This document shows, piece after piece, positions 3,835-29,086 of a stretch of DNA of 64,000 nt. The stretch comes from Escherichia coli (GTDB taxonomy: Bacteria; Pseudomonadota; Gammaproteobacteria; Enterobacterales; Enterobacteriaceae), in assembly GCF_030013595.1 (NCBI RefSeq), contig NZ_CP122768.1. One strand, 5' to 3'. Numbering within the stretch: the stretch's first letter is position 1; the number at the start of each line of letters is the position of its first letter. Both the position numbers and the translations under genes were made by a program. The notes beneath the pieces were generated by a model, which did no database searches, was not told the origin of the DNA, and saw nothing but the letters and a program-made list of their open reading frames with translations.

Positions 3835-3836
3835 GG

Positions 3837-3912: not shown

Positions 3913-4047
3913 AATACTACGCTGGATACTACAACTAACTATGTTAGTGGTGGGTCGTGCAGGATGACTCGACTTCGTCTCGCCCTTCGGGCCGTTGCTG
4001 ACGCAACGTTATCCTTCACGTTTTACTACCGCTTCCACCTTAGCGAT

Positions 4048-4123
4048 TGGTGGGTCGTGCAGGATTCGAACCTGCGACCAATTGATTAAAAGTCAACTGC
4101 TCTACCAACTGAGCTAACGACCC
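4048..4123 (-). tRNA. lysT: tRNA-Lys (UUU)
   Basis: identical 76-nt copy; first gene of the operon, adjacent to cpoB. Confidence 0.95.
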
Positions 4124-11635: not shown

Positions 11636-11650
11636 TTGACGACTCCTGTC

Positions 11651-13219
11651 TTAGCGTGCCGGCTGAGTAGTCGTGGAAGACTGCTCAAAGTGATAGCGAC
11701 CGGTTTTCAGGCTGCTTGGGCCGAGGCGTGCAAACTTGAACATTAAGAACAATTCTGCCACCAGGAACAGGGTATACAGGCCGCAAATCAGCACCATTGA
11801 GAAGATGAGATCGCCTGCGGTCAGTGACGAGTTCGCCACAGCTGTCGGCAGCACTTCACCGATAGCCCACGGTTGGCGGCCATATTCAGCCACAAACCAG
11901 CCCGCTTCTACAGCAATCCACGGCAGCGGAATACCGTACAGCGCGGCGCGCAGCAGCCATTTTTTCTCGCCAATGCGGTTGCGGATGACACTCCAGAAAG
12001 AGAGCGCGATGATTGCCAGCAGCAGGAAGCCACACGCCACCATGATACGGAACGCGAAGTACAGCGGCGCTACACGCGGAATGGAGTCTTTGGTTGCCTG
12101 TTGAATCTGCGCTTCAGTCGCATCAGCCACGTTTGGCGTATAGCGTTTCAGCAGCAGACCGTAACCGAGGTCTTTCTTCATGCTATTGAACTGGTCACGA
12201 ACCGCCTGGTCGGTAGAACCAGAACGCAGTTGCTCGAGCAGAGAGTACGCCTTCATCCCGTTACGAATGCGTTCTTCATGCTGCACCATCAGTTCTTTCA
12301 GGCCGATAACTGGAGTATCCACGGAACGCGTTGCAATGATACCCAGCGCGTAAGGGATCTGGATCGCAAATTTGTTCGTCTCCTCTTCCTGATCAGGAAT
12401 GCCGAACAGAGTAAAGGCAGCAGGCGCAGGTTGCGTTTCCCACTCGGCTTCAATAGCAGCCAGTTTGGTTTTCTGCACGTCGCCCATTTCGTAACCAGAT
12501 TCATCACCCAGAACAATAACAGACAGAACGGCAGCCATACCGAAGCTGGCAGCGATAGCAAAGGAGCGTTTAGCGAAGGCGAAGTCACGACCTTTCAGCA
12601 TATACCATGCGCTGATACCGAGGATGAACATCGCGCCAGTCACATAACCAGACGCTACAGTGTGAACGAATTTCACCTGAGCAACCGGGTTAAGCACCAG
12701 CTCGGAGAAGCTCACCATCTCCATACGCATAGTTTCAAAGTTGAAATCAGACGCGATTGGGTTTTGCATCCAGCCGTTCGCAACCAGAATCCACAGTGCG
12801 GACAGGTTTGAACCGAGCGCCACCAGCCAGGTGACACACATATGCTGAACTTTACCCAGACGATCCCAACCGAAGAAGAACAGACCTACAAAGGTGGATT
12901 CGAGGAAGAAGGCCATTAGACCTTCGATTGCCAGCGGCGCACCGAAGATATCCCCTACATAGTGGGAATAGTAAGACCAGTTAGTCCCGAACTGGAACTC
13001 CATGGTCAGACCGGTAGCCACACCCAGAGCGAAGTTGATACCAAACAACTTGCCCCAGAACTTGGTCATATCTTTATAAATCTGTTTGCCGGAAAGGACG
13101 TAGACCGTTTCCATAATGGCCAGCAGGAACGCCATACCGAGCGTCAGTGGCACAAAAAGGAAGTGGTACATCGCGGTCAAGGCAAACTGTAAGCGCGACA
13201 GTTCGACTATATCTAACAT
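11651..13219 (-). CDS. cydA: cytochrome bd-I ubiquinol oxidase subunit I
   Basis: 522 aa from the second Met ([12 protein letters not shown]...); Q-loop region present. Confidence 0.96.
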
Positions 13220-13556
13220 CATGACTCCTTGCTCATCGCATGAAGACTCCGAGAGTGAACCCCGTTAGAAAGGGTCACACGCATGCCCCAATACAAAATT
13301 ATTTGCTCGCCTCTATCGTTGCCATTTCATCAAAAGAGGAAAAGACAATGATAAAAAAGTTACAAATATGTTAATGAATAAACCAAATTGATCCCGTAAT
13401 TATATTACGCCGCAAAATCCTTACAATAAACAGGTTTTTATTGAGCAAATTTGCATTTTTCGACAGTGATCAATTTATAGCGAAATTGTCACGATCTCAC
13501 CAATTTGATCTACGACAATTTATCGTGTTTTGCAGATTTTTTTCAAGAATTAAAAA

Positions 13557-13570
13557 TTGATTTATATCAA
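13557..13570. promoter_or_regulatory. FNR-consensus palindrome TTGAT-N4-ATCAA in the cydA upstream region
   Basis: perfect match to the FNR half-site palindrome about 340 bp upstream of the cydA start; cydAB is known to be FNR/ArcA regulated. Confidence 0.55.
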
Positions 13571-14024
13571 AATCAACCAAATATGTTAATTATGTATAAA
13601 CCATAGATCATTGGTAATTTTATTGTTAATTTATTGTGAAATATTTATGCAACACAATTATTACAATGAAAAAGTATAGATAAAAAACCAGTGTTTTATT
13701 TAACAGAACCGCCCTATCCACTTTTTATAATACCAATTGATTAGAGTAGCCAATTTGTTGCTATTTTACATAACATATTTTTATCAAAGTTAATTGATTG
13801 TTGCCTTTATGAGCACCGGCCGTAAGCCCGTTATGTTATTGTTTCATTAGTAATAATCACTTAAATGTATCGATGAAACAGGTATGACTTAGCGGGAGTG
13901 ATTGTTTCTGAGTGAACAGAGACCACTTTCGCCTGATAAATGAAAAATGAGCGATTTTTGCAAGTTAGTTTTTCTATAGCCGAGTACGCTCAGCGCCTCG
14001 CTTGATTACAATGAGGTTGCTGCT

Positions 14025-14969
14025 ATGAGTCCTGATAATATCAGTTCTGCTGTCAATCGCTTCTCAGGTTGGCCATCTAATGATCCTCTAAAAACAGATA
14101 AAGAATCAATGACATCACCCATGACTGTGCAGGTAATAAAGATGATTGCCGCCATCCTTGACCCACATCGGATAGTCGTTGGAATCGATACACTTTATAC
14201 AACGCAGCGCGAAACATTTACCTCAGAGAGTCAACAGCTCATTGAATCAGCATTGCAAACACTTCATGTGATGAATTTAAATAACCTGGAAACAAATCTC
14301 GATGAGGAAGGTCACTATCTGGCTTTTGGATATAACGTTGACACTCCTGACAGAATAACCGTTTCTGCTTATAATGAAAAAAAGCCTGGCTGCTATGGCC
14401 AATGTCTTTTAATACAGGATGACGAAACAGACTTATTTAACCTGATAAAAGTTAAAATTTTTGAAGCCAGGCATAATTATGTCGCTCAATTGATGAGCGA
14501 TCCGGAATTTATGTTCAAATTTAGTTATAGCGCTCAACAAAATAGATTAGAACCTCATCTTCTGGTTCCCACTTATTTCCCTCTAAAAACAAACGAACCG
14601 GTTACGCAAGAGGATGTACTGTTACTTTATCGTTTCTTTAAAATGGATGGTGATTTTAATATATTAACATCAGATGAATACATGAGTATCATGACACCTC
14701 TAATGAAGTGTGAGCGTAGCATCCACGACCACAACAGGTATGTGACGGGCAAAGATCCCCTTCTTCTGGACTATCCTCCTTCTGGTAACCAGATATATTT
14801 CCATATTTTTCCTGACGAATCAGCAACACTAGTCCTTTATTTTTCAAACAATGACATTGAATGTTTCGTCTTTGAAAGAGATATTCCGAGCCAGTATCGC
14901 TTTTTCAAAATGTTTACCAATCTGGCACTGGTTATTGATCAGTTAACCGATGCCAATCAAATACTTTAA
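14025..14969 (+). CDS. hypothetical protein, 314 aa, low GC, no recognisable domain
   Basis: clean ORF with a GAGG Shine-Dalgarno 8 nt upstream; polar Ser/Pro-rich N-terminus; no signal peptide or TM segment; AT-rich codon usage unlike flanking core genes. Confidence 0.7.
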   Translation: MSPDNISSAVNRFSGWPSNDPLKTDKESMTSPMTVQVIKMIAAILDPHRIVVGIDTLYTTQRETFTSESQQLIESALQTLHVMNLNNLETNLDEEGHYLAFGYNVDTPDRITVSAYNEKKPGCYGQCLLIQDDETDLFNLIKVKIFEARHNYVAQLMSDPEFMFKFSYSAQQNRLEPHLLVPTYFPLKTNEPVTQEDVLLLYRFFKMDGDFNILTSDEYMSIMTPLMKCERSIHDHNRYVTGKDPLLLDYPPSGNQIYFHIFPDESATLVLYFSNNDIECFVFERDIPSQYRFFKMFTNLALVIDQLTDANQIL

Positions 14970-15049
14970 TTTTTATATATTCCCTGTGGCAAATATTGCT
15001 AAACAATGCCCGGGGATTAATTTTTATTACTCACGGAAAGATTTAAATA

Positions 15050-15472
15050 ATGATCCCATCTCAAATCTCTTTCAACACCCTTCCTGTCAATGCAACATAC
15101 GCTTCAGAGACAACAGTTGACACACAAAAATTCTCTGACATCCTCTACTCAGCGGGGTGTTCCCTAAAGGATCTGGCTTATCTGAGCAGATGTCTGGCAT
15201 CAATACATCCGACTATCGCCAAAAACATTTATGAAACAGAAAATCTCAGCGATCAAAAATTACTACATATTGATTGCCGTAGTACAAATGAAATCAAGAT
15301 AAATATCTTTTTTGGTCAACAACGAGAAGGATTAATTGAAATTAGTTCTGACACAGTCATTTTTTCGATACTGTCTTCATTGATTGACTCCACCATTTCT
15401 AAATTTCAACACCAAAACCCCGTTAACGGTTCTGTAAATCCTGACCTATTGTATGAGGATTATACTGATTAA
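15050..15472 (+). CDS. hypothetical small acidic protein, 140 aa, low GC
   Basis: ORF 80 bp downstream of the 314-aa gene on the same strand; acidic composition, no TM; no family recognised. Confidence 0.6.
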   Translation: MIPSQISFNTLPVNATYASETTVDTQKFSDILYSAGCSLKDLAYLSRCLASIHPTIAKNIYETENLSDQKLLHIDCRSTNEIKINIFFGQQREGLIEISSDTVIFSILSSLIDSTISKFQHQNPVNGSVNPDLLYEDYTD

Positions 15473-16019
15473 ATCCCTCCTGTCGCGAAAAATGGCCTGC
15501 GTTATTGCCAGACGTAATAAAACTTTTGATTAACGTTTCTCGTACTGGTAGCACCTTCATGTACTTTTCTTTTTTACGAAAAATCAAAAGAGCTAACAAA
15601 GGTCATAATTCGCATGAATCATTAATTATTTGTTATTTTCAACATTATTTTTACATTAAGCAGAGATGAATTGCAGTGAAATTCGACTTAATTTTTATGA
15701 AATGCATTTACTCATGGCTAAAGCCACGTCACAAAAATGCAAATTAGAAGTTGATCACAATTATCTCAATACATCAAATCAAGTTAATTTTAAAAATTTA
15801 ACATTCATGACACTAGTTGACATAACACACTGAATTAAAATGAGAATTTGGAAACACACTTTAAACAATCATTTCCCGAAAGACATTTTGAAAATAGATC
15901 AATTGCAACATTACGGTCAGATAAAGACACTCCTGTGATATTAAACCTGTGCCGTTATGAACGGCCATAAATACGACGTGTGTAACTTATTTTACTCTCT
16001 GTCTTACAAAGGATTACCC

Positions 16020-16469
16020 ATGAAGAAAGCAACACTTGTGATTGGCGTTATTGGCGCGGACTGCCATGCAGTAGGCAATAAAGTTCTGGACCGCGTTTTT
16101 AGCAACCATGGCTTCAGAGTCATTAATCTGGGCGTAATGGTCAGCCAGGACGAATATATTGATGCTGCCATTGAAACTGGCGCTGACGCGATTGTCGTCT
16201 CCTCTATCTATGGGCATGGCGATATCGACTGTCTGGGCATGCGCGAACGCTGCATCGAGCGTGGACTGGGTGACATCCTGCTCTATGTGGGCGGTAACCT
16301 GGTGGTCGGAAAACATGACTTCGCTGACGTGGAAACCAAATTTAAAGAGATGGGATTTGATCGCGTCTTTGCCCCAAGTCATGACTTAGAAGATGTTTGT
16401 CAGCTGATGGCCCACGATATCAACCAACGTCATGACGTTGATACTCGCATTCTTGAAGAGGCAATCTGA
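16020..16469 (+). CDS. glmS: glutamate mutase sigma (S) subunit, cobalamin-binding
   Basis: start placed at [21 protein letters not shown] after an AAGGA Shine-Dalgarno; the D-x-H-x-x-G B12-binding motif (DCHAVG) is present; similar to clostridial MutS/GlmS. Confidence 0.9.
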
Positions 16470-17857
16470 TGCAAATCGTCTCTGTCGATATTGGATCGAC
16501 GTGGACCAAAGCAGCCCTCTTCGCCCGGGAGGGGGACGCGTTAACGTTGGTTAACCACGTACTGACCCCAACCACCACCCATCATCTGGCGAAGGGGTTT
16601 TTCTCCAGCCTGAACCTGGTGTTAAACGTAGATAATGCCCTCCCCCTGTTTAACAGCGGTGAGGTTACATTGAAGTATTCCTCCTCTGCCAAAGGTGGGC
16701 TGGCGGTTGCCGCAATGGGATTGGTGCCTTCTATCACCCTGGAAACCGCGAAAGTAACCGCTCACTCTGCGGGGGCTAAAATTGCGCAATATTACTCCTA
16801 CAAGCTGAACCGCCGTGATATCCAGGCACTGGAAGAAACGCAGCCCGATATTCTCTTGTTCACCGGCGGCACCGACGGCGGAGAAGAAAGCTACGGCCTG
16901 AATAACGCCCGTGTGCTGGCAGAATCCAAACTCGACTGCGCCATTATTTATGCCGGAAACCGGGATATTCAGGACGAAGTGCAGGAGATCCTAGGGCATA
17001 AAGACCTGACCATCGTCGACAACGTTCTGCCCGATCTTGACCATCCGAACCCTTTAGCCGCACGCCAGGCTATCTGCGACATATTCCTTAAACGCATCGT
17101 TAAAGGGAAAGGGCTGGATGTCGTTGTTGATAAAACAGGCGAAGAACCAATGCCGACACCATGGACGGTCTTTGAACTGGTTAAGGCAATCAGTAACGTC
17201 GATCACAGCTGGAAAGAGTTCATGCTGATCGACATGGGCGGCGCAACCACCGATGTCTATTCCGCCTGTGCCAACACGCTCTCGCCCGACACCGTTTTAC
17301 ACGGCGTACCGGAACCCTTCGTGAAACGGACGGTGGAAGGCGATCTGGGAATGCGCGTCTCGGCAATGGTGGTTGGTGAAAGTGCGAAAGAGTTAGTCAA
17401 TGTGAATTTTGCTCAGCAACCCGCACAGCTGGACGCTTTTTATCATTACCTCCGTCATCTAGTCGCTCATCCCGACTACTTACCCGCGAATGCAGAAGAA
17501 AAATATTTCGATACCGTCCTGGCCGGACTGTGTGTGGGTTATGCCACCGAAAGACATGCGGGCACCAAAAAAGAGGTCTGCACCTGCGTCGGCAATGTCG
17601 ATTTACAGATGGGACGTGACCTGACAACCGTGCGTAAAGTCGTCGGATCCGGCGGATGGCTCTCGCGTGCCAGTCAGTTCGATATGCATCACTGGTTGAA
17701 ATACCGCGAGTTAAACGACGACGGTAAACGCATTCTCTTACCGACCGAATTTGAATATTACCGCGATTCCCGGGGGCTATTACCACTGCTGGCAAACGTC
17801 GCCAGAGTCGATCCTCTGGCCGCCGCGCGCACCAGTATTCAATGCTTAACCCTATAA
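16469..17857 (+). CDS. glmL: glutamate mutase-associated protein L (MutL/GlmL, putative reactivase)
   Basis: 462-aa ORF between the S and E subunit genes, as in clostridial glutamate mutase operons. Confidence 0.85.
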   Translation: MQIVSVDIGSTWTKAALFAREGDALTLVNHVLTPTTTHHLAKGFFSSLNLVLNVDNALPLFNSGEVTLKYSSSAKGGLAVAAMGLVPSITLETAKVTAHSAGAKIAQYYSYKLNRRDIQALEETQPDILLFTGGTDGGEESYGLNNARVLAESKLDCAIIYAGNRDIQDEVQEILGHKDLTIVDNVLPDLDHPNPLAARQAICDIFLKRIVKGKGLDVVVDKTGEEPMPTPWTVFELVKAISNVDHSWKEFMLIDMGGATTDVYSACANTLSPDTVLHGVPEPFVKRTVEGDLGMRVSAMVVGESAKELVNVNFAQQPAQLDAFYHYLRHLVAHPDYLPANAEEKYFDTVLAGLCVGYATERHAGTKKEVCTCVGNVDLQMGRDLTTVRKVVGSGGWLSRASQFDMHHWLKYRELNDDGKRILLPTEFEYYRDSRGLLPLLANVARVDPLAAARTSIQCLTL

Positions 17858-17875
17858 CAATTAAGGCTGCAATCA

Positions 17876-19321
17876 ATGGAACTTCGAAATAAGAAATTAA
17901 CCCATGACGAATTCATGACCGAGCGGCAACAGGTACTGAAAACCTGGGAAACCGGCAAGGATGTTGAAAACTTTGAAGATGGCGTTAAATACCAACAAAC
18001 CATTCCTGAGCATAAACGCTTCTCTCTTGCGCTGTTGAAAGCAGACAAGGAAGGTAAAACCCTTAGCCAACCGCGCGCAGGTGTGGCGCTGATGGACGAA
18101 CACATCGAACTACTGAAAACACTACAAGAAGAGTGCGATCTGCTGCCGAGCACTATCGATGCATATACCCGTCTGAATCGGTACGAAGAAGCGGCTGTAG
18201 GGATTAAAAAATCCATCGAAGCCGGAACCTCTAAACTGAACGGTTTGCCGGTAGTTAACCATGGCGTCGCAGCTTGCCGTCGCCTCACCGAAACCCTGCA
18301 AAAACCGCTACAGATCCGCCACGGCACGCCAGATGCGCGTCTGCTGGCTGAAATCTCAATGGCCAGCGGCTTTACCAGTTATGAAGGCGGTGGCATTTCC
18401 TACAACATTCCGTATGCCAAACGCGTAACGCTGGAAAAATCGATCCGCGACTGGCAGTACTGCGACCGTTTAATGGGGATGTATGAAGAACACGGGATCC
18501 GCATCAACCGCGAACCGTTTGGCCCACTAACGGGTACGCTGATCCCGCCGTTTATCTCGCACTCTATCGCGATAATCGAAGGCTTGCTGGCGCTGGAACA
18601 GGGTGTGAAATCTATCACCGTTGGTTATGGACAGGTCGGCAGCCTGACGCAGGATGTTGCGGCGATCCAGTCTCTGCGTGAACTTGCACACGAATATTTT
18701 CAGAGCTATGGCTATACCGACTATGAATTAAGTACCGTGTTTCACCAGTGGATGGGCGGCTTTCCGGAAGACGAATCGAAAGCGTTCGCTATTATCTCCT
18801 GGGGCGCAGCCGTCGCGGGGATGTCTGGTGCCACCAAAGTCATCACCAAAAGTCCGCACGAAGCCTGGGGCATCCCGACTGCCGCTGCCAACATTCAGGG
18901 GCTGAAAGCCTCCCGCCAGATGCTCAACATGGTCAACGAGCAGAAATTCCCGCCGTGCCCTGCGGTTGAACTGGAAATTGAACTGATTAAGAGCGAGGTT
19001 CGCGCGGTACTGAATAAAGTGTTCGAACTGGGTAATGGTGATATTGCGCGCGGTACGGTGCTGGCATTTGAAGCGGGCGTACTGGATGTGCCGTTTGCGC
19101 CAGCCGCCTGCAACGCGGGCAAAATTCTTCCGGTCCGTGACAACACCGGCGCGATACGCGTACTGGAAGCCGGAGCCGTTCCATTGCCAAAAGATATTCT
19201 CGACCTCCACCACGATTACGTTGCTGAACGCGCACGCTTTGAAGGACGCCAACCGACATTCCAGATGGTTGTAGATGACATCAATGCTGTATCCCACAGT
19301 AAATTAATAGGAAGACCATAA
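17876..19321 (+). CDS. glmE: glutamate mutase epsilon (E) subunit
   Basis: 481 aa with strong collinear similarity to clostridial GlmE (e.g. PRAGVALxDEHIELL, REPFGPLTGTL, VFHQWMGGFP). Confidence 0.92.
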   Translation: MELRNKKLTHDEFMTERQQVLKTWETGKDVENFEDGVKYQQTIPEHKRFSLALLKADKEGKTLSQPRAGVALMDEHIELLKTLQEECDLLPSTIDAYTRLNRYEEAAVGIKKSIEAGTSKLNGLPVVNHGVAACRRLTETLQKPLQIRHGTPDARLLAEISMASGFTSYEGGGISYNIPYAKRVTLEKSIRDWQYCDRLMGMYEEHGIRINREPFGPLTGTLIPPFISHSIAIIEGLLALEQGVKSITVGYGQVGSLTQDVAAIQSLRELAHEYFQSYGYTDYELSTVFHQWMGGFPEDESKAFAIISWGAAVAGMSGATKVITKSPHEAWGIPTAAANIQGLKASRQMLNMVNEQKFPPCPAVELEIELIKSEVRAVLNKVFELGNGDIARGTVLAFEAGVLDVPFAPAACNAGKILPVRDNTGAIRVLEAGAVPLPKDILDLHHDYVAERARFEGRQPTFQMVVDDINAVSHSKLIGRP

Positions 19322-20562
19322 TGAAAATAAAACAGGCTCTGTTCACCGCTGGCTACTCCTCATTCTATTTCGATGACCAGCAGGCGATAAAAAACGGAGC
19401 GGGTCATGACGGCTTTTTTTATACCGGGGAGCCAGTAACACAGGGGTTTAACGCCGTACGTCAGGCCGGGGAGTGCGTATCGGTACAGTTGATTCTGGAA
19501 AACGGCGCGGTCGCCGTAGGTGACTGTGCTGCCGTACAGTATTCCGGGGCAGGTGGTCGCGATCCACTGTTCCTCGCAGAGCACTTTATTCCGTTCCTCA
19601 ACGACCATATCAAGCCATTACTGGTAGGCCGCGATGTGGATGCTTTCCTGCCGAATGCCCGTTTCTTCGACAAATTGCGTATTGACGGCAACTTGCTACA
19701 TACCGCCGTGCGCTACGGATTATCACAGGCGCTGCTTGATGCTACCGCGCTGGCAACCGGCCGTCTGAAAACTGAAGTAGTTTGCGATGAATGGCAGTTG
19801 CCACGCGTGGCGGAATCCATTCCATTATTTGGTCAGAGCGGTGACGATCGATATATCGCCGTCGATAAGATGATCCTTAAGGGCATCGACGTGCTGCCCC
19901 ATGCACTGATTAATAACGTCGAAGAGAAACTAGGCTTTAAAGGTGAAAAACTGCGCGAATATGTCCGCTGGCTGTCGGATCGTATTCTGAGCAAGCGCAC
20001 CAGCGCACGCTACCACCCTACCCTGCACATCGATGTATACGGCACTATCGGTCTGATCTTCGATATGGATCCGCTTCGCTGTGCGCAATACATCGCCAGC
20101 CTGGAAAAAGAAGCGCAAGGCCTGCCGCTCTACATTGAAGGGCCGGTCGATGCCGGTAACAAGCCCGATCAAATTCGCCTGCTGACCGCGATTACCAAAG
20201 AGCTGACGCGCCTCGGTTCCGGCGTGAAAATTGTGGCCGATGAATGGTGTAACACCTACCAGGATATTGTTGATTTTACTGATGCCGCCAGTTGCCACAT
20301 GGTGCAAATCAAAACCCCGGATCTGGGCAGTATTCACAACATCGTCGATGCGGTTCTTTACTGCAACAGCCACAGCATGGAAGCGTACCAGGGCGGCACC
20401 TGCAATGAAACTGATGTCAGTGCCTGCACCTGTGTCCACGTCGCCCTTGCCGCTCGCCCTATGCGTATGCTGGTAAAGCCAGGGATGGGCTTTGACGAAG
20501 GCCTCGATATCGTCTTCAACGAAATGAATCGTACTATCGCGCTGTTGCAGGCTAAGGATTAA
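19321..20562 (+). CDS. mal: 3-methylaspartate ammonia-lyase (beta-methylaspartase)
   Basis: 413 aa; enolase-superfamily MAL motifs (AVQYSGAGGRDPLF, HMVQIKTPDLG, KPGMG); overlaps glmE stop (TAATG). Confidence 0.93.
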   Translation: MKIKQALFTAGYSSFYFDDQQAIKNGAGHDGFFYTGEPVTQGFNAVRQAGECVSVQLILENGAVAVGDCAAVQYSGAGGRDPLFLAEHFIPFLNDHIKPLLVGRDVDAFLPNARFFDKLRIDGNLLHTAVRYGLSQALLDATALATGRLKTEVVCDEWQLPRVAESIPLFGQSGDDRYIAVDKMILKGIDVLPHALINNVEEKLGFKGEKLREYVRWLSDRILSKRTSARYHPTLHIDVYGTIGLIFDMDPLRCAQYIASLEKEAQGLPLYIEGPVDAGNKPDQIRLLTAITKELTRLGSGVKIVADEWCNTYQDIVDFTDAASCHMVQIKTPDLGSIHNIVDAVLYCNSHSMEAYQGGTCNETDVSACTCVHVALAARPMRMLVKPGMGFDEGLDIVFNEMNRTIALLQAKD

Positions 20563-20565
20563 CAA

Positions 20566-21936
20566 ATGGCTCGTTCTTTTAAAGTCTTATCGCCAACGGC
20601 AATCCTCGGGTATGGATTCCCGGAAGAGAGCTTCCGTAAAGCGATGGCAGAATCGCCCGATCTGATCGCCGTTGATGCAGGCTCTTCCGATCCTGGCCCC
20701 CACTACCTCGGGGCGGGCAAACCGTTTACCGATCGCGCAGGGGTCAAGCGCGATCTGCGCTATATGATCACCGCAGGCGTGCAAAATAATATACCGGTGG
20801 TGATCGGAACGGCTGGCGGTTCTGGTGCCGCACCACACCTGGAGTGGTGCCGAGAAATAATTCATGAGATTGCCCGGGAAGAGCACCTCTCGTTCTCGAT
20901 GGCGTTGATCCCGGCAGACGTTGACAAAGCCATCGTCCACCAGGCGCTGGATAACGGCAAAATCACGGCGCTGGATTTTGTCCCGCCGTTAACCCACGAC
21001 GCGATTGACGAAAGTACGTATATCGTCGCGCAAATGGGCATCGAACCCTTCCAGCAGGCGCTGAAAGAAGGCGCGCAAGTGGTGCTGGGCGGGCGCGCTT
21101 ACGACCCGGCCTGCTTTGCTGCGCTACCGATCATGCAAGGCTTTGATGAAGGTCTGGCGCTGCATTGTGGGAAAATCCTTGAATGCGCGGCAATCGCCGC
21201 AACGCCCGGCTCAGGCTCTGACTGGGCGATGGGCATCATTGATGACAACGGCTTTACGCTGAAGACATTTAATCCGAAGCGTAAATTTACCGAAACGTCA
21301 GCGGCTGCACACACACTGTATGAGAAATCCGATCCCTACTTCCTGCCAGGACCTGGCGGCGTGTTGAACCTGAAAGACTGCACATTTAAAGCGGTCAATG
21401 ACGGCGAAGTGTACGTCAGCGGTTCTAAGCATGAAGAAACGCCGTATGCCCTGAAACTGGAAGGTGCGCGACGAGTGGGCTTCCGCTGTCTGACCATCGC
21501 AGGAACGCGCGACCCGATCATGATCGCCGGGATCGATAAAATCATCGATGAAGTCAAAACCAGCGTTTCGCGTAACCTGTCGCTCGACGATGACAGCATT
21601 CACATCAATTTCCACCTGTACGGCAAAAACGGGGTGATGGGCGACCATGAACCGATGCAAACTGCCGGGCATGAGCTGGGGATTGTCCTTGATGTAGTTG
21701 CACCGACCCAGGAAATTGCCAATAGCGTTTGCTCGCTGGTGCGCTCTACCATGCTGCACTACGGCTATGAAAACCGCATCGCTACCGCAGGCAATCTGGC
21801 GTTCCCGTTCTCCCCTTCTGATATCCAGGGCGGGCCGGTATACGAATTTTCCATATATCACCTGATTGAAGCCAACGACGCTCTGCGTTTTGATTTCCAT
21901 ATTGAACAGGTGACGCCAGAAGGAGTTCAGGCATGA
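20566..21936 (+). CDS. DUF1446 (AtuA-like) family protein, function unknown
   Basis: 456-aa soluble ORF; family assignment from remembered N-terminal pattern, not verified. Confidence 0.6.
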   Translation: MARSFKVLSPTAILGYGFPEESFRKAMAESPDLIAVDAGSSDPGPHYLGAGKPFTDRAGVKRDLRYMITAGVQNNIPVVIGTAGGSGAAPHLEWCREIIHEIAREEHLSFSMALIPADVDKAIVHQALDNGKITALDFVPPLTHDAIDESTYIVAQMGIEPFQQALKEGAQVVLGGRAYDPACFAALPIMQGFDEGLALHCGKILECAAIAATPGSGSDWAMGIIDDNGFTLKTFNPKRKFTETSAAAHTLYEKSDPYFLPGPGGVLNLKDCTFKAVNDGEVYVSGSKHEETPYALKLEGARRVGFRCLTIAGTRDPIMIAGIDKIIDEVKTSVSRNLSLDDDSIHINFHLYGKNGVMGDHEPMQTAGHELGIVLDVVAPTQEIANSVCSLVRSTMLHYGYENRIATAGNLAFPFSPSDIQGGPVYEFSIYHLIEANDALRFDFHIEQVTPEGVQA

Positions 21937-22250
21937 AACAGTCAATTGTCTCACTGGCGCAAGTCATTCGTTCGAAAAATGCCGGACCTTACGAACTGGT
22001 TTTAGATATTTTATTTAAAACCAAAGAAAACTATGAGCGTGTCAAATCATCAGGGCAATTAACCCCAGAACTGATCGCGCGCTTATATCATGTTGAACCT
22101 GACTTTATTCATCGTATTGTCTGGTTTGATCCTTCTAACGCAGTAAAAATCGTCATGCCACGAGATATTATCTCCGGGAATGTAGGTGACAATGATGTCT
22201 ATGGTGCACAGCAACATGCACCTTTATTAAATATGAGTTTCGATTTGTAA
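21933..22250 (+). CDS. DUF4387-like small protein, function unknown
   Basis: 105-aa ORF translationally coupled (ATGA overlap) to the DUF1446-like gene; remembered SKNAGP and YGAQQH motifs. Confidence 0.55.
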   Translation: MKQSIVSLAQVIRSKNAGPYELVLDILFKTKENYERVKSSGQLTPELIARLYHVEPDFIHRIVWFDPSNAVKIVMPRDIISGNVGDNDVYGAQQHAPLLNMSFDL

Positions 22251-22333
22251 AAATCCGAATACTTTTAGCCAACTGACATCCCGTCACTTATTGCAGTTCA
22301 ACACTTCAGCTATTTGTAAGGTTGTAATAGCAG

Positions 22334-22375
22334 GTAGATGCCTGAATCTCTATTCAGGCATCTACTTCTCCTGAT
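22334..22375 (+). terminator. intrinsic terminator or attenuator hairpin (14-bp perfect stem GTAGATGCCTGAAT / ATTCAGGCATCTAC)
   Basis: perfect inverted repeat with CTCT loop followed by a T-rich tract, between the DUF4387-like gene and the transporter. Confidence 0.6.
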
Positions 22376-22410
22376 TCTGATTTATCGCCGCGCACCTGAT
22401 GGAGGAAAAA

Positions 22411-23691
22411 ATGAAGAAAATAAGTTTAACCACGATGATTCTTTTGGCGCTGGTACTTGGAATGATTATCGGCGTAGTGCTCAATAACACTGCTTCACCG
22501 GAAACCGCAAAACTCTATGCGCAAGAAATATCGATATTCACGACGATTTTCTTACGACTGATAAAAATGATTATCGCTCCGTTAGTGGTCTCTACCCTGG
22601 TGGTAGGTATAGCTAAAATGGGCGATGCCAAAGCCCTTGGTCGTATTTTTTCTAAAACACTCTTTTTATTTATTTGCGCCTCATTGCTGTCAATTGCCTT
22701 AGGCTTGATAACAGTAAATTTCTTCATGCCAGGCACAGGAATTAATTTTGTTGCACACGGAGCCGAAACCACCGGAGTGGTCGCGTCAGAACCCTTTACG
22801 CTAAAAGTATTTATTTCGCATGCTTTCCCCACCAGCATTGTCGATGCCATGGCGCACAATGAAATTTTGCAAATCGTGGTGTTCTCAATTTTCCTCGGCT
22901 GTAGCCTGACGGCGATTGGCGAGAAAGCCAGCGCCATCGTTCACGCCTTAGATTCGCTGGCACATGCCATGTTAAAGCTCACTGGCTACGTCATGCTCTT
23001 CGCTCCCCTGACCGTATTCGCTGCTATTTCAGCATTGATTGCTGAACGAGGACTGGCAGTTATGGTGAGCGCCGGGATCTTTATGGGTGAATTTTATTTC
23101 ACCATGTTATTACTTTGGGTGCTGCTTATCGGTCTGGCCATCGTTTATGTTGGCCCCTGCATCAGACGCCTGACCCGCGCCCTTTCGGAACCCGCCCTGC
23201 TGGCATTTACCACATCCAGTTCTGAAGCGGCTTTTCCAGGAACGCTTGAAAAACTGGAGCAATTTGGCGTTTCCCCCAAAATTGCCAGCTTTGTCTTACC
23301 CATTGGCTACTCATTTAATCTCGTTGGATCAATGGCCTACTGCTCCTTCGCCACAGTTTTCATCGCCCAGGCCTGCAATATCCATTTATCCATCGGTGAG
23401 CAAATCACCATGCTGTTGATCCTGATGTTGACCTCGAAAGGAATGGCTGGCGTACCACGCGCCTCAATGGTGGTTATCGCCGCCACGCTCAACCAGTTCA
23501 ATATTCCGGAAGCGGGGCTGATCTTGCTGATGGGCGTTGATCCGTTCCTTGATATGGGGCGTTCCGCGACAAACGTCATGAGCAACGCAATGGGCGCTGC
23601 GATGGTGAGTCGGTGGGAAGGCGAACATTTCGGCGAGGGCTGTCGGGGTAAAGCATTAAAACCCAATGAATCGAACGTTGCTCTGCCCTGA
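22411..23691 (+). CDS. dicarboxylate/amino acid:cation symporter (DAACS family, GltP/DctA-like)
   Basis: about 426-aa polytopic membrane ORF; start chosen at MKKISL after a GGAGG Shine-Dalgarno; substrate unknown. Confidence 0.8.
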   Translation: MKKISLTTMILLALVLGMIIGVVLNNTASPETAKLYAQEISIFTTIFLRLIKMIIAPLVVSTLVVGIAKMGDAKALGRIFSKTLFLFICASLLSIALGLITVNFFMPGTGINFVAHGAETTGVVASEPFTLKVFISHAFPTSIVDAMAHNEILQIVVFSIFLGCSLTAIGEKASAIVHALDSLAHAMLKLTGYVMLFAPLTVFAAISALIAERGLAVMVSAGIFMGEFYFTMLLLWVLLIGLAIVYVGPCIRRLTRALSEPALLAFTTSSSEAAFPGTLEKLEQFGVSPKIASFVLPIGYSFNLVGSMAYCSFATVFIAQACNIHLSIGEQITMLLILMLTSKGMAGVPRASMVVIAATLNQFNIPEAGLILLMGVDPFLDMGRSATNVMSNAMGAAMVSRWEGEHFGEGCRGKALKPNESNVALP

Positions 23692-23798
23692 GGGGGATCT
23701 TAAGCAATCAGAAGCCAATGACTACGCATTTTTATAAGCCGGATCATGAAGTTAGACGGCAATTAAGTAACACTAACGTTTAAGGTGAAAAGTGAAAT

Positions 23799-25451
23799 AT
23801 GTCAAAACCATTTATCTGGCAAGAACCGTTTCTACAAAATAAAGACGGTACAGAATATACATTAATTAGCGATCAGCATATTACAGTAACGGAATTAGAC
23901 GGCGAAGAAGTGATAAAAATCGCTCCTGAAGCATTAACGCTGCTTGCCCGGCAGGCATTTTATGAAGCCTCTTTTTTCTTACGTTCCGCTCATTTGCAAC
24001 AGGTCGCCAGCATTCTTAACGATCCGCAGGCCAGTAGTAATGATAAATACGTTGCGTTGCAGTTATTACGTAATGCTGAAGTCTCAGCAAAAGGGGTATT
24101 ACCCAACTGTCAGGATACCGGCACCGCAACTATTGTTGCCAGTAAAGGGCAACAGATATGGACGGGAGGTAACGACGCTGAAGCCTTAAGCAAAGGCATT
24201 TACAGTACTTTCCAGGAAAATAATCTGCGCTTTTCACAAAATGCGCCGCTGGATATGTATACCGAAGTCAATACGCAAACCAATCTCCCGGCGCAGATTG
24301 ATATCAGCGCTGTCGCTGGTAATGAGTACCATTTTCTCTGTGTTAATAAAGGGGGCGGCTCCGCCAATAAAGCCGCACTTTATCAGGAAACCAAATCCTT
24401 ATTGCAACCAGAAAAACTGACCGCATTTTTAATCGAAAAAATGAAATCGCTGGGCACCGCTGCCTGCCCGCCTTACCACATCGCCTTTGTCGTCGGAGGG
24501 CTTTCAGCCGATCAAACCTTAAAAGTTGCCAAGCTGGCCTCAACGAAATATTACGACAATTTGCCCACCAGCGGAAACGAGCAAGGACAAGCATTCCGTG
24601 ATATTGAGCTGGAAAAAGTGTTGCTCGAGGCCAGTCAGCAATTTGGTATTGGTGCGCAATTTGGAGGTAAATATTTCGCTCATGATATTCGCGTCATTCG
24701 TCTGCCGCGTCACGGTGGCTCCTGCCCGATAGCTATGGCGCTCTCCTGTTCTGCCGATCGCAATATCAAAGCAAAAATTAACAAGCACGGTATCTGGCTG
24801 GAAAAACTCGAACACAATCCGGGGCAATATATTCCAGCCTCACTGCGGGAAGAAAATCACGCGCAACATGTACAGCTGGATCTAAACCGTCCGTTGCGTG
24901 ACGTGATGCAGGATCTCGCCAGATTACCGGTAGGTACCCGCGTGTCGTTAAGTGGTCCCATCGTAGTGGCGCGCGATATCGCCCACGCCAAAATAAAAGC
25001 GCGGCTGGATAGCGGCGAACCGATGCCGGATTACCTGAAGCATCATATTGTCTATTACGCTGGCCCGGCGAAAACACCGGAGAACATGGCCTGCGGTTCA
25101 CTAGGTCCAACCACGGGCGGTCGAATGGACGGTTATGTCGATACCTTCCAGGCTGCTGGCGGCAGTCTGGTAATGTTATCGAAAGGTAACCGCAGCCAGC
25201 AGGTCACCGATGCCTGTCACAAACATGGCGGCTTCAATCTGGGAAGTATTGGCGGTGCAGCTGCGTTACTGGCGCAAGAATATGTCAAAAGTCTGCGTTG
25301 CCTGGAATACCCGGAGCTGGGTATGGAAGCGGTGTGGATGATGGAAGTGGAAAATCTGCCCGCATTCATCCTGGTAGATGATAAAGGCAATAATTTCTTT
25401 AGTCAGTTTGAGCAGCAACACCGCTGCGCCAGTTGCCCTGCGGGACATTAA
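23799..25451 (+). CDS. fumD: class I (Fe-S) fumarate hydratase paralogue, mesaconase/fumarase FumD-type
   Basis: 550 aa, FumA/FumB-like; clustered with glutamate mutase and mal as described for FumD of E. coli O157:H7. Confidence 0.85.
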
Positions 25452-25460
25452 GGAAAATGA

Positions 25461-26063
25461 ATGGAAGCGCGAATTTCAACTGAACGGCATGTGCAGCGCC
25501 AGCAGAAATTGAAGGAACAGGTCGATACGCGCATCGCGGCGGCGATAGAGAAAAAAGGGATTTTGATTGTTTTCACCGGCAATGGCAAAGGGAAATCCAC
25601 TGCCGCGTTTGGTACTGTGACGCGCGCGGTGGGTCATGGCAAAACGGTGGGGGTTGCGCAGTACATCAAGGGGCAATGGGACAACGGCGAATACAACCTT
25701 CTCCAGCCGCTGGGGGTTGAGTTTCATATTATGGGAACCGGTTTTACCTGGGAGACACAGAACCGGCAAGCGGATATCGACGCGGCGAAAGAGGTCTGGT
25801 CGGAAAGCAAACGGATGCTGGCTGACAAGCGTTACGACTTAGTGGTGCTTGATGAGCTGACCTATATGCTGGCTTACCATTATCTGGATACCGAAGAAGT
25901 GATCGCTTCTCTGCAAAACCGCCCGGCACAACAAAGTGTCATTGTCACCGGACGCGGTTGCCACAGTCAGATATTAAAAATGGCGGATACGGTCAGCGAA
26001 ATCCGCCCCGTCAAACATGCTTTTGATAACGGCATTCAGGCCCAGCCGGGTATCGACTGGTAA
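25461..26063 (+). CDS. cob(I)alamin adenosyltransferase (BtuR/CobA paralogue)
   Basis: 200 aa with P-loop GNGKGKSTAAFG and collinear similarity to BtuR; would supply adenosylcobalamin to glutamate mutase. Confidence 0.88.
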   Translation: MEARISTERHVQRQQKLKEQVDTRIAAAIEKKGILIVFTGNGKGKSTAAFGTVTRAVGHGKTVGVAQYIKGQWDNGEYNLLQPLGVEFHIMGTGFTWETQNRQADIDAAKEVWSESKRMLADKRYDLVVLDELTYMLAYHYLDTEEVIASLQNRPAQQSVIVTGRGCHSQILKMADTVSEIRPVKHAFDNGIQAQPGIDW

Positions 26064-26066
26064 TAA

Positions 26067-26098
26067 CTGCGCCTGGCATCCCGCCAGGCGCAGGTTTT
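26067..26098. terminator. bidirectional terminator hairpin between convergent genes
   Basis: 11-bp inverted repeat CTGCGCCTGGC / GCCAGGCGCAG followed by GTTTT. Confidence 0.6.
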
Positions 26099-27002
26099 AC
26101 ATCTCCTGCGGTACAACCGATTTCGCCAGCAACCATTCACGAAATTGCTGCAAGTGCGGTGAGTCAGACTTCTCTTCCTGCCACGTCATAATAAAACGAT
26201 TACCGGTACGAATAGGCACATCACAGGGGATCACCATATCGCCACTATCCAAATCATGTTGAATAGCGAACCGTGGTAACAGCGCCACGCCGAGATTCGA
26301 GCGCACGGCGGCAATCAGCATTGAAAGCAAATCGAAACGTGGTCCGTTGTTGACCAGCGGACTGCTAACGCCAGATAAGGCAAACCACTCTTCCCAGCCA
26401 GTAATACGGGTACTTTGATGCAGAAGTGGTAACTCTGTAAGCAGTTCTGCCACTGACAGTTTTTGATCGGACATTGCAAGCAAACTGCCGCTGCATACCG
26501 GCAAAATCTCCTCATAAAAGAGATATTCTACTTCCGCCCAGGGCGCGCAAAAATTTTCGCGCATAATGACAGCATCGTACTCCCGATTAAGAAAATCGCC
26601 GTTATTAGCTAAAGAGTGAATATTAACAATAATATCGGGATGTAACTTTGTGAATTCATGTAAATTTGGGATTAACCAGTGAGTACTAAACGTAGGATTA
26701 ACGGCAAGTTCAATAACCTGAACCGTAGGCTGCCAGGTCATAATGGTATTGGTATCGCGTTCCAGCTTATTTAATGTTTCTTTTACTATCCCCAGGTAAT
26801 ACTTCCCTGCATCATTAAGAAAAATGCGTTTTTTAGAGTGTGAAAATAACGGAGTATGTAAAAATTCCTCCAGCGCACTTACTTGTCTGAATACAGCACT
26901 TTGGGTTAACGCTAACTCCTCTGCCGCTCTGGTATAGCTTTCATGACGTGCGACGACCTCAAAAGTCACCAGCTGCTCCGTTTTAGGTATTTTTCCTCGC
27001 AT
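26097..27002 (-). CDS. LysR-family transcriptional regulator
   Basis: N-terminal HTH (TFEVVARHESYTRAAEELALTQSAVFRQVSALEE) and LysR substrate-binding domain; start chosen at MRGKIP; divergent from the RtcB-like gene. Confidence 0.85.
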   Translation of the reverse strand: MRGKIPKTEQLVTFEVVARHESYTRAAEELALTQSAVFRQVSALEEFLHTPLFSHSKKRIFLNDAGKYYLGIVKETLNKLERDTNTIMTWQPTVQVIELAVNPTFSTHWLIPNLHEFTKLHPDIIVNIHSLANNGDFLNREYDAVIMRENFCAPWAEVEYLFYEEILPVCSGSLLAMSDQKLSVAELLTELPLLHQSTRITGWEEWFALSGVSSPLVNNGPRFDLLSMLIAAVRSNLGVALLPRFAIQHDLDSGDMVIPCDVPIRTGNRFIMTWQEEKSDSPHLQQFREWLLAKSVVPQEM

Positions 27003-27591
27003 AATGCCGTCCGTGAAAAAATAACAATTCAAAAATTATTTTATAAAAAACAGTAGCACTAATGAATATCATAATTCAAATAAACAAACCAGTCAGCTAT
27101 ATGTCTAACCAGGAAAATAAAGTGACAATAATCCTAAAACAGGAATTTCACCTCAGTTATCCGCATGCAATACTTTAAAGCTATTATTGCAAGAATATTA
27201 TTCATATACATGAATATACTCTAAATAAGTCAAGTTGCAGGAAGGGAACAAATAATGAATTTCCAGAAGCTTACATAAGTAAGTGACCTGGGTGAGCGAA
27301 CATCGATGCAGCACATGCAACTTGAATTATGACAAGTATACAATGATAAATTTATATACCCTATGTTATATATTATCTATGTCCGGTTAAATTGAATGAG
27401 TCATGGCCTTAAAAGACTTCACAAAAGATAATTCCTCTTTAACAATAAGCCAGATTTACCACTTGTAAAACTTGCTATCGCCACATACACTACGCGCGTT
27501 TTCTTTCCCTTTTGCTGGCTGCTGACCGGAAAGACAAAATTACCCTCGCAATACAGGGGGTTGTTTAACGTCTATATTTCAGGACAGCGTT

Positions 27592-28989
27592 ATGCATCAT
27601 CTTTCAAGGCTTGATAAAGCCTTTCTGCGCAAAGGGATCCAACTTTCCCGCGCCAACAATATTGTTTCATTATCTCGTCCATCAGGTGCCAGTGCCCGCG
27701 TACTGCTGCCGGACGAACTGCCGCTGGAAGAAAAAGCAGTAACACAACTGCTTGATTTTGCAGAAGTGAAGCTACCAGACCACCCAGGTTATGTGCGCCA
27801 GACGTGCGCGACGCCAGATTTTCATCCCGGCAATGGAGTCCCCGTTGGCGCGGTGGTGGCCTCAACGCCGGATTTAGTCATTCCCGCCGCCATCGGCACC
27901 GATATTTCTTGTGGCATGCGGCTGCTGACGACCGGATTAACACTTGAGCAAGCCGAAGCGCATAAAGACGTCATCGCTCAGCGGTTAACGCAAGTGCTAC
28001 TGCAAAATGAGCGCGATGTTCCGTTATCCGCACAGGCGTTCACCGCGCTTTTTGATGGCGGACCGGCAGATTGCGTGTCGACCTTGCCATCAGCAGGTCT
28101 CTGGACACGCACGAATATCCCCCGAATGGTACAAGAGATTGACCGCTGCATTGGGCTTAACGAGCATAACAGTCATTCGCGTTATGCCCCACCCGCCCTG
28201 CTGGCAACGGACCGCGCATTACTCCGCGATCCTTGTCTGGGTACGCCGGGTTCAGGTAATCATTTTATTGAACTTCAGGTCGTTGATAGCGTGGTTGATC
28301 GCCATGTAGCCTGGCAACAAGGGCTGAAAACAGGCGATATTGTGGTGATGATCCACAGTGGATCGCGAGATGTTGGCTTTTACGTCGGAAGACGCTGGAT
28401 GGATCGCGCCCGTGCTGAATGGCCCACCGGACATAAACATCCACAAAGCGGGTTATATGGTCTGGCAGGCGGACTGGCGGAGGAATATCTACAAGCGATA
28501 GGAATGGCGGCGCGTTACGCGTGGTTAAATCGCGTCACAATTGCCGAAATGGTGCGCGTATGTCTCGCCAATCTCTTTCATCAGGACAATTCGCATCTGG
28601 TGGTGGATGTGCCGCATAACATCATCCTTCGCGAGCATGAAATGAATATTCATCGCAAAGGTGCAACACCGGCACGAGTGGGCGATCTGGCATTAATCCC
28701 CGGTTCAATGGGCGATTATTCGTGGCTTGCAGTCGGTTGCGGCAACCCGGAGTGGCTGTGGTCATGCAGTCACGGAGCAGGACGCAGCCAGCGTCGACAG
28801 GCCATGCGCTCAAGCGCGACTGAAGAGTCAACGCTGCCGTGGCAATGCGTCACATTGCGTGAAGAACGACGTCTTGAAGAAGCGCCAGCGGCTTATAAAG
28901 ATATTGGTCCGGTTATCGAAGCCCAACAAGAAGCCGGATTAATTCAGCCAGCGGTCAGATTTCGACCGTGGTTAACGTTTAAGGCATAA
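27592..28989 (+). CDS. RtcB-family RNA 3'-phosphate ligase paralogue with N-terminal extension
   Basis: 465 aa; RtcB motifs PDFHPGNG, IPAAIGTDISCGM, GSGNHFIEL, MIHSGSRDVG, HN, IPGSMG, CSHGAGR, AYKDI; no rtcA/rtcR nearby. Confidence 0.85.
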   Translation: MHHLSRLDKAFLRKGIQLSRANNIVSLSRPSGASARVLLPDELPLEEKAVTQLLDFAEVKLPDHPGYVRQTCATPDFHPGNGVPVGAVVASTPDLVIPAAIGTDISCGMRLLTTGLTLEQAEAHKDVIAQRLTQVLLQNERDVPLSAQAFTALFDGGPADCVSTLPSAGLWTRTNIPRMVQEIDRCIGLNEHNSHSRYAPPALLATDRALLRDPCLGTPGSGNHFIELQVVDSVVDRHVAWQQGLKTGDIVVMIHSGSRDVGFYVGRRWMDRARAEWPTGHKHPQSGLYGLAGGLAEEYLQAIGMAARYAWLNRVTIAEMVRVCLANLFHQDNSHLVVDVPHNIILREHEMNIHRKGATPARVGDLALIPGSMGDYSWLAVGCGNPEWLWSCSHGAGRSQRRQAMRSSATEESTLPWQCVTLREERRLEEAPAAYKDIGPVIEAQQEAGLIQPAVRFRPWLTFKA

Positions 28990-29086
28990 AAAAGGCCATC
29001 ATACGATGGCCAACCATGTCGAAACCGACAGCCCTTCGCCATTCCTGTAGAGGGAAGCGGCGAGGGCTATTTCTTATTACAGATAT
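28990..29086 (-). ncRNA. sdhX: SdhX (RybD)-type 3'UTR-derived sRNA region with intrinsic terminator
   Basis: position immediately 3' of sucD with terminator GGCCATCGTATGATGGCC-TTTT on the minus strand; assignment by position and memory of SdhX, exact ends uncertain. Confidence 0.5.

Follow-up and report, generated by a model that had tools for sequence, protein, structure and literature searches.

The stretch analyzed here is a 64,000-nucleotide (nt) segment of an Escherichia coli chromosome (assembly GCF_030013595.1, contig NZ_CP122768.1; hereafter the window), and our subject is a cluster of ten genes between cydAB and sucDC that is predicted to encode a methylaspartate pathway, which would convert L-glutamate to pyruvate, acetate, and ammonia. 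Gene identities were taken from a listing of open reading frames (ORFs) together with Pfam and NCBIfam profile searches. An earlier interpretation made from the letters alone (the sequence-only reading) had listed glmS-glmL-glmE-mal, two DUF genes, a symporter gene, fumD, and an adenosyltransferase gene, followed by a convergent LysR regulator; the profile matches and the RefSeq annotation of a 99.9% identical strain bear out this list, its order, and the orientation of the regulator gene. The cluster consists of the following features:

16020-16469 (+): glmS, B12-binding sigma subunit of glutamate mutase; NCBIfam equivalogs NF002612 and TIGR01501
16469-17857 (+): glmL (mutL), glutamate mutase accessory/reactivating protein; Pfam MutL PF13941, E = 6e-139, full length; glmL is the RefSeq name
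17876-19321 (+): glmE, catalytic epsilon subunit of glutamate mutase; Pfam Met_asp_mut_E, E = 1e-214
19321-20562 (+): mal, 3-methylaspartate ammonia-lyase (enolase superfamily); Pfam MAAL_N and MAAL_C
20566-21936 (+): cmlA, putative citramalate lyase large subunit; AtuA/DUF1446 family
21933-22250 (+): cmlB, putative citramalate lyase small subunit; DUF4387; 4-nt overlap with cmlA
22411-23691 (+): SDF-family dicarboxylate/amino acid:cation symporter; Pfam SDF, E = 4e-102
23799-25451 (+): fumD, class I fumarase acting as mesaconase; NCBIfam equivalog NF011921
25461-26063 (+): cobO/btuR-like ATP:cob(I)alamin adenosyltransferase; Pfam CobA_CobO_BtuR, E = 5e-64
26067-26093: GC-rich, terminator-like hairpin between the convergent cobO and lysR genes
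26097-27002 (-): lysR (GcvA-like), presumed cluster regulator, convergent; Pfam HTH_1 and LysR_substrate

GlmS scored 254 bits against NF002612 (cutoff, 110) and also exceeded the cutoff of the TIGR01501 equivalog. It carries the DxHxxG motif of base-off/His-on B12 binding as DCHAVG (residues 14 to 19), and its full-length alignment pairs residue 1 with residue 1 of Clostridium cochlearium GlmS (1I9C). This alignment, together with an ATG and a ribosome-binding site (AAAGGA/AGAGGA) that are kept in 14 other species across genera, places the glmS start at 16020 and not at 15957, where the sequence-only reading had put it. The Met_asp_mut_E family covers GlmE at positions 1 to 441 of 441, and the solved GlmE structures 6H9E/1CCW match it over its full length (E = 2e-190). 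With glmL lying between glmS and glmE and the catalytic subunit complete, the arrangement is that of glutamate mutase genes, and interconversion of glutamate and 3-methylaspartate is predicted for GlmS/GlmE by homology to the clostridial enzymes. Mal is near-identical to the solved and characterized methylaspartate ammonia-lyase of Citrobacter amalonaticus (1KKO; E = 4e-269), and H194, D238, E273, D307, Q329, and K331 (six of six) are conserved in the alignment. In the enzymes represented by 1KKO and 1KCZ, K331 and H194 serve as catalytic bases, with Q329 alongside them, and D238, E273, and D307 serve as metal ligands.

FumD scored 1,286 bits against NF011921 (cutoff, 1,060) and is identical to ECs_0757 of the O157:H7 strain Sakai at 545 of 550 residues, confirming that the cluster is the fumD cluster described by Kronen and Berg in 2015, real and already known, as the sequence-only reading had recognized. 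By their account, 26.5% of E. coli and 90.6% of O157:H7 strains have fumD in a cluster with genes for glutamate mutase and methylaspartase, and FumD (ECs0757) prefers mesaconate over fumarate 2- to 3-fold in kcat/Km (PMC4682846). No other paper using the ECs0757-0764 tags was found in the literature searched.

The symporter scored 311 bits against the DctA model and 302 bits against the GltP model of NCBIfam, each below its own cutoff; Kronen and Berg termed it GltP (PMC4682846). Its start at 22411 agrees with RefSeq, and the start codon is conserved across genera. The adenosyltransferase exceeded the cutoffs of TIGR00708 (246.6 versus 167.75 bits) and NF004637 (296 versus 185 bits), while the top NCBIfam match of the LysR protein, the GcvA subfamily, fell below cutoff. 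The cobO/lysR hairpin has an 11-pair stem with 9 G-C pairs, followed by a T-run, and is the same element as inverted repeat I17. All ten cluster ORFs are intact in the window, and the same intact genes are listed in the RefSeq annotation of a pig E. coli isolate that is 99.9% identical to the window across 13000 to 29300; the lysR start at 27002 follows that annotation. A Pfam scan of the 13 ORFs between cydA and sucD gave no match to CitD, CitE, or CitF of CitDEF-type lyases, and a permissive Rfam scan of 13000 to 29300 detected neither a B12 riboswitch nor any other structured RNA at E values up to 1. Sites resembling sigma-70 promoters were no more frequent than in shuffled sequences, and of the terminator candidates only the cobO/lysR hairpin and the sucD terminator were informative.

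The putative citramalate lyase and the predicted pathway

The two genes downstream of mal, unrecognized as anything but DUF genes in the sequence-only reading, match citramalate lyase. CmlA aligned over all 456 residues with chain A of PDB entries 9ERQ and 9EVF (E = 6.6e-289, ~92% identity), and CmlB aligned with chain B of 9ERQ over residues 1 to 104 (E = 5e-57). The depositors named these chains "Citramalate lyase, subunit A (cmlA)" and "subunit B (cmlB)," and the structures, released in 2025, contain bound citramalate. In every related locus, cmlA lies next to and before cmlB. At ~90% identity to the solved Raoultella-type enzyme, the adjacent AtuA/DUF1446 and DUF4387 genes are orthologous to it, and by this match their products would form a citramalate lyase. 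In a preprint that used the cmlAB genes of Raoultella planticola, citramalate was cleaved directly to pyruvate and acetate, and the same genes supported mesaconate-dependent acetyl-coenzyme A (acetyl-CoA) formation in E. coli (bioRxiv 10.64898/2026.01.16.699985); the preprint makes no mention of a nucleotide requirement or a regulatory role. Neither a primary description of CmlAB nor any paper on DUF4387 was found in the literature searched, and NCBIfam holds no model for either subunit.

Independent support for a role of cmlAB in the pathway comes from its conservation across phyla. One genome per species was scanned with CmlA, which yielded 57 related loci, and the window proteins were mapped onto each. 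The order glmS-glmL-glmE-mal-cmlA-cmlB forms a fixed core in Enterobacteriaceae, Aromatoleum/Azoarcus, Telmatospirillum, Desulfotomaculum, and Dictyoglomaceae; a metagenome-assembled genome (MAG) from the Bacillota has the same six genes with mal placed after cmlB.

In 2015 it was conceivable that the pathway ended at (S)-citramalate, which would be secreted or used elsewhere, and that the AtuA/DUF4387 pair was unrelated to it. To Kronen and Berg, the AtuA gene was a DUF1446 gene whose function was not known; their extracts showed no citramalate lyase activity, and they did not settle what becomes of citramalate (PMC4682846). The lack of an NCBIfam model for either protein also leaves room for such an endpoint. 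However, the cluster was not expressed in the cells from which these extracts were made (PMC4682846), and the identity to citramalate-bound structures, the in vivo use of cmlAB to turn mesaconate into pyruvate and acetate (bioRxiv 10.64898/2026.01.16.699985), and the cross-phylum linkage of cmlAB to glmSLE-mal make a citramalate endpoint very improbable.

The sequence-only reading had called the pathway complete without giving a reason; the claim was right, but completeness depends entirely on the match of both DUF genes to the solved citramalate lyase. Its view that role and regulation are not known remains valid as far as regulation and the inducing condition are concerned, but no longer applies to the fate of citramalate. 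The cluster was published in 2015 and the last enzymatic step was closed by structures that others solved, so that the observation as such is not new. In RefSeq, cmlA is labeled "AtuA family" and cmlB "DUF4387," and in older records the two appear as methylaspartate ammonia-lyase and acyl-CoA synthetase. As a consequence, a complete B12-dependent and redox-neutral conversion of glutamate to pyruvate and acetate is missing from genome-scale models of E. coli of the O157:H7 type and of other strains that have the cluster.

The proposed pathway would run as follows. The SDF symporter, judging from its family membership, would import the substrate, most likely glutamate, and the CobA/BtuR-type enzyme, again by family, would adenosylate imported or scavenged cobalamin; E. 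coli is not known to make B12 de novo. GlmS and GlmE, kept active by GlmL, would convert glutamate to (2S,3S)-3-methylaspartate, as their clostridial homologs do, and Mal, near-identical to the solved Citrobacter enzyme, would release ammonia to give mesaconate. FumD would hydrate mesaconate to (S)-citramalate, as indicated by the biochemistry of a 99% identical protein, and CmlAB, to go by its solved relative and the reported in vivo use of that enzyme, would split citramalate into pyruvate and acetate. The net reaction would be glutamate + H2O to pyruvate + acetate + NH3, a redox-neutral conversion; through pyruvate formate-lyase and acetate kinase, ~1 ATP per glutamate may be gained. The convergent LysR protein, acting via a 21-nt box upstream of glmS (described below), probably controls expression, and the AT-rich promoter may be silenced under laboratory conditions.

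We put the probability that the cluster encodes such a complete, chromosomal, nonmobile pathway from L-glutamate to pyruvate, acetate, and ammonia at roughly 85%. Several points weigh against it. Kronen and Berg found no conditions that led an O157:H7 strain to express the genes or to grow on glutamate (PMC4682846). The function of CmlAB is taken from the depositors' names and from one preprint whose authors had received the enzyme as a gift, and the 9ERQ complex contains the ATP analogue AMPPNP. The connection of the LysR protein to the box is drawn from co-conservation, and the symporter is as DctA-like as it is GltP-like, so that the imported substrate could be a C4 or C5 dicarboxylate.

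The last point leads to an alternative in which the cluster serves chiefly for external C5 dicarboxylates (mesaconate, methylaspartate, or citramalate), which the symporter would import, with the mutase as a side entry. The marginally higher DctA score fits this view, and FumD with CmlAB alone would be enough for the use of mesaconate. Yet the genes for the B12-dependent mutase, for its reactivating protein, and for a dedicated adenosyltransferase have all remained intact and conserved, a glutaminase gene lies inside the cluster in other genera, and a hut operon, whose product is glutamate, has been added in 144 E. coli genomes. This combination of an intact mutase set, glutaminase, and hut argues for glutamate as the entry substrate, and we consider a primary role in C5 dicarboxylate use unlikely.

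The variable segment and its forms in E. coli

The cluster is part of a longer strain-variable segment, whose other features and flanks are as follows:

10496-13219 (-): cydAB, left flank
13596-14024: left junction, AT-rich DNA upstream of cydA, GC content 0.35 to 0.36
14025-14969 (+): orfX1, 314-amino-acid orphan gene, ~35% GC; hypothetical in RefSeq; ECs_0767 in Sakai
15050-15472 (+): orfX2, 140-amino-acid orphan gene, ~35% GC; ECs_0766 in Sakai
27021-27483: AT-rich filler, 463 nt, single copy, next to lysR in the position of hut
27592-28989 (+): RtcB-family RNA ligase gene, stand-alone and outside the pathway; Pfam RtcB, E = 1e-94
28984-29011: right junction and sucD terminator
29087-31122 (-): sucDC, right flank

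Because the homology with K-12 breaks off 373 nt upstream of cydA, at 13595, and resumes at 28984, the variable segment spans approximately 13596 to 28983, or ~15 kb. The sequence-only reading had given 10 kb (15957 to 26063); its cyd and suc flanks were correct, but its boundaries omitted ~5 kb containing the two orphan genes, the rtcB-family gene, and AT-rich filler. Homology to the alleles of strains MP1 and p11A, which have a TPR gene in the interval, stops at 13860, and on the right the homology to K-12, MP1, and p11A resumes at 28984 to 28986, next to a terminator-like hairpin (29011 to 28994, minus strand) downstream of sucD. In the regulatory region upstream of cydA (13300 to 13600), identity to K-12 is 63 to 89%, while cydA itself is 98 to 100% identical; the same region is at least 96% identical to that of the TPR-allele strain MP1. 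Variation in the cyd promoter region thus goes along with that in the neighboring variable segment.

Neither orfX1 nor orfX2 has a match in Pfam, NCBIfam, or PADLOC. Only five homologous protein clusters of orfX1 were present in a collection of 5.8 billion proteins, and the sole one with a named source is from E. coli. Among the 57 related loci, orfX1 was matched only by a contig of a Citrobacter sp. MAG (98% identity) and by a cryptic Escherichia (50%), and the sole match of orfX2 was this Citrobacter sp. MAG contig (96%); we suspect that the contig (96 to 99% identical) is misbinned E. coli DNA. The catalytic Asp/Cys/His motifs of the RtcB-family protein are intact and align with those of Thermus RtcB (TTHA1785), each residue presumably having the role assigned to it in the Pyrococcus enzyme, and the protein falls short of the cutoff of each of the two NCBIfam RtcB equivalogs. 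Its closest relatives outside Escherichia, at 60 to 67% identity, are in Pseudomonas, Burkholderia, Variovorax, and Chitinivorax; in these genera, too, the gene stands alone, with no rtcA, rtcR, or archease gene nearby. A role of orfX1, orfX2, or rtcB in anti-phage defense was considered and rejected, as PADLOC gave no match. The 463-nt filler contains no ORF longer than 40 amino acids and no repeat copies and has no similarity to the SX4 and O145 alleles; an imperfect hairpin within it (27215 to 27340) folds better than shuffled sequences (z = -3.2).

The locus occurs in three forms in E. coli. In the long form, present in 144 genomes (for example, strains SX4 and HB42), an 8.6-kb hutH-hutG-hutI-hutD-permease-hutU array lies between lysR and rtcB. 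The form found in the window, also present in 144 genomes, has the unrelated 463-nt AT-rich DNA exactly in the position of hut and keeps rtcB. The O157/O145 form lacks both hut and rtcB. In the O145 allele, which was compared directly, an eroded 3' end of hutH and remnants of rtcB persist, and these remnants show that it derives from the long form. In the O145 strain RM8843-C1, glmL and mal are annotated as frameshifted. Since the hut enzymes end in glutamate, the long form sets histidine breakdown beside glutamate breakdown; no paper on an E. coli hut operon next to glm was found in the literature searched.

A candidate operator upstream of glmS

Over the 400 nt upstream of glmS, the sequence is AT-rich and scarcely alignable between genera, except for a 21-nt box and a shorter patch 3' of it, AGACACTCC at 15925 to 15933 and TATTAA at 15939 to 15944. 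The box is as follows:

15886-15906 (+): TTTTGAAAATAGATCAATTGC, candidate LysR operator with the dyad TGA-N7-TCA (T-N11-A)

A T-N11-A dyad is the kind of site that LysR-type regulators bind. The box lies 134 nt upstream of the glmS ATG and occurs once in the window. It is found with no or one mismatch in 38 of the related Enterobacteriaceae loci, 110 to 138 nt upstream of glmS (244 nt in one of them), and this invariance across genera implies selection on regulation. Degenerate versions are present in Budvicia and Yersinia aldovae, and a related sequence is found upstream of fumD in two Yersinia species. No second copy was found upstream of gltP, where the spacer is poorly conserved. Other readings of the box were rejected by eye, and a LysR-type dyad was preferred: for FNR or CRP, the TGA-N7-TCA half-sites are one base too far apart; for sigma-54, there is no GG at -24; and for IHF or Fur, the match to the consensus is poor.

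In most Enterobacteriaceae loci, lysR is conserved together with the cluster, although it is absent from the flanks of the Hafnia and Budvicia clusters, and a 45% identical homolog lies divergently next to glmS in Aromatoleum/Azoarcus. From this co-conservation, the LysR protein probably acts on the 21-nt box. We tentatively propose, at somewhat less than even odds for the two parts jointly, that the box is a LysR operator switching the operon on with a co-inducer (candidates are glutamate, methylaspartate, mesaconate, and a corrinoid) and that in 144 genomes hut and glm form one contiguous module for anaerobic conversion of histidine to pyruvate and acetate. Neither the operator role of the box nor the hut-glm module appears in the literature searched. 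If both are true, the operator and the hut module make the question of when enterobacteria use the pathway directly testable.

History of the interval and comparison with known systems

The Klebsiella oxytoca group, many Citrobacter species, Salmonella enterica subspecies arizonae and diarizonae, Pseudescherichia vulneris, Escherichia whittamii, and cryptic Escherichia all have the entire cluster between cydA and sucD, so that it is found in this interval in at least five genera. The nucleotide identity of the cluster to the window is 98 to 99% in E. coli, 85 to 92% in E. whittamii, 75 to 84% in Citrobacter, Salmonella, and Klebsiella, and 70 to 79% in P. vulneris, and the flanking cyd and suc genes parallel this trend at higher values. 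Several other genera have a glutaminase gene between the symporter gene and fumD; next to lysR there is an AraC-type regulator gene in Klebsiella and a PocR/AraC-type regulator gene with a tetrapyrrole methylase gene in Citrobacter (compare Fig. 5 of PMC4682846). In the mapping of the 57 loci, neither hut nor rtcB was present in any locus of another genus.

In E. whittamii and Escherichia sp. E1V33, the symporter gene and the greater part of cobO are gone and the enzyme genes persist, which suggests that erosion of the cluster is ongoing in some lineages. The cluster in E. coli might then be a silent, decaying relic without a current role, and the lack of detectable expression in the O157:H7 strain (PMC4682846), the annotated frameshifts in glmL and mal of one O145 genome, the loss of gltP and truncation of cobO in E. 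whittamii and a cryptic Escherichia, the erosion of hut and rtcB to remnants in the compared O145 allele, and the AT-rich promoter region can all be read in this way. We nevertheless regard a relic as improbable: the ten genes are intact in both the window and the near-identical pig strain, the window, O157 Sakai, and SX4 alleles are 98 to 99% identical gene by gene over their full length, and the box is invariant across genera.

In K-12, mngB-mngA-mngR occupies the interval between cydA and sucD. The sequence-only reading had noted that these genes are missing here, and a search of all 64 kb indeed gave no protein or DNA match to mng. It had further called the cluster an ancient replacement of mng, of which age and immobility are supported, whereas displacement of mng is not. 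In Citrobacter amalonaticus S646, mngB-mngA-mngR (~85% protein identity to K-12) lies immediately to the left of glmS, and a second C. amalonaticus strain has remnants of mngB and mngR between cydA and glmS. The interval can thus accommodate the two modules together, as cydA-mng-glm-sucD, which is evidence that it anciently held both. More likely than a replacement are alternative losses, in which K-12 would have the shared arrangement minus glm and the window the same arrangement minus mng. Among complete E. coli genomes, 1,116 of 5,426 (20.6%) carry at least 80% of the segment and 3,884 carry mng; the two sum to 5,000 of 5,426, counts that, compared as totals, are compatible with mutual exclusivity. 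Other E. coli alleles of the interval have a TPR gene, with or without mng.

A recently acquired island that displaced mngR-mngAB in the lineage of the window would also produce presence/absence polymorphism within E. coli, as well as AT-rich junctions with orphan genes, and the nearest relatives of rtcB outside Escherichia are in Pseudomonas and Betaproteobacteria. However, neither our own scans nor the PGAP annotation of the identical locus detected a transposase or integrase, and the cydA-sucD interval contains no tRNA gene and no flanking direct repeats longer than expected by chance. The marks of a mobile island (integrase or transposase, tRNA or attachment site, and flanking repeats) are thus missing, in agreement with the sequence-only reading, which had seen no integrase, insertion sequence element, or direct repeats at the flanks. 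GC content is 0.51 to 0.56 from glmS to cmlB and 0.42 to 0.53 from gltP to cobO. These observations, the same position in Klebsiella, Citrobacter, Salmonella, Pseudescherichia, and other Escherichia with identity that scales with phylogeny, and the presence of mng and glm side by side in C. amalonaticus make a recent acquisition highly unlikely. The best explanation appears to be that the cluster has long resided in the cydA-sucD interval of Enterobacteriaceae and was lost in the K-12 lineage, which kept mng. The only tRNA genes in the window (seven, five Lys-UUU and two Val-UAC, at 3222 to 4123 on the minus strand) do not adjoin the variable segment.

New here are the corrected coordinates and boundaries, the CmlAB assignment, which is absent from public annotation, the history of the interval across genera, and the operator prediction. 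The candidate operator, the hut-linked form, and the shared history of mng and glm provide handles on when and why approximately one-fifth of E. coli strains use the pathway.

Compared with known systems, the cluster is closest to ECs_0755-ECs_0764 of O157:H7 Sakai, which has the same genes, in the same order and at the same cydA-sucD locus, with 98 to 99% nucleotide identity; Sakai has no annotated gene between lysR and sucD, whereas the window has an intact rtcB-family gene and the 463-nt filler. With respect to Raoultella CmlAB (9ERQ and 9EVF), the pair in the window is the E. coli ortholog, and nothing functional sets it apart. The K-12 mngR-mngA-mngB genes, for mannosylglycerate uptake and hydrolysis, occupy the same interval and share the right junction just past the sucD terminator, but are unrelated to the glm cluster in function and sequence. 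The haloarchaeal methylaspartate cycle activates mesaconate to mesaconyl-CoA for acetate assimilation; it has neither a mesaconase nor a citramalate lyase, and its gene order is not homologous to that of the window. The clostridial pathway of Clostridium tetanomorphum and C. cochlearium, with a glmS-mutL-glmE-mal array, has the same chemistry, from glutamate to pyruvate and acetate; its GlmS and GlmE are homologous to the window proteins over their full length, and GlmL and Mal belong to the same families. In contrast, clostridia use a two-subunit MesAB mesaconase and an acyl-carrier-protein-containing CitDEF-type citramalate lyase, whereas the window has a single-chain class I fumarase and CmlAB (AtuA and DUF4387), no butyrate branch, and a LysR-type regulator instead of a GntR regulator.

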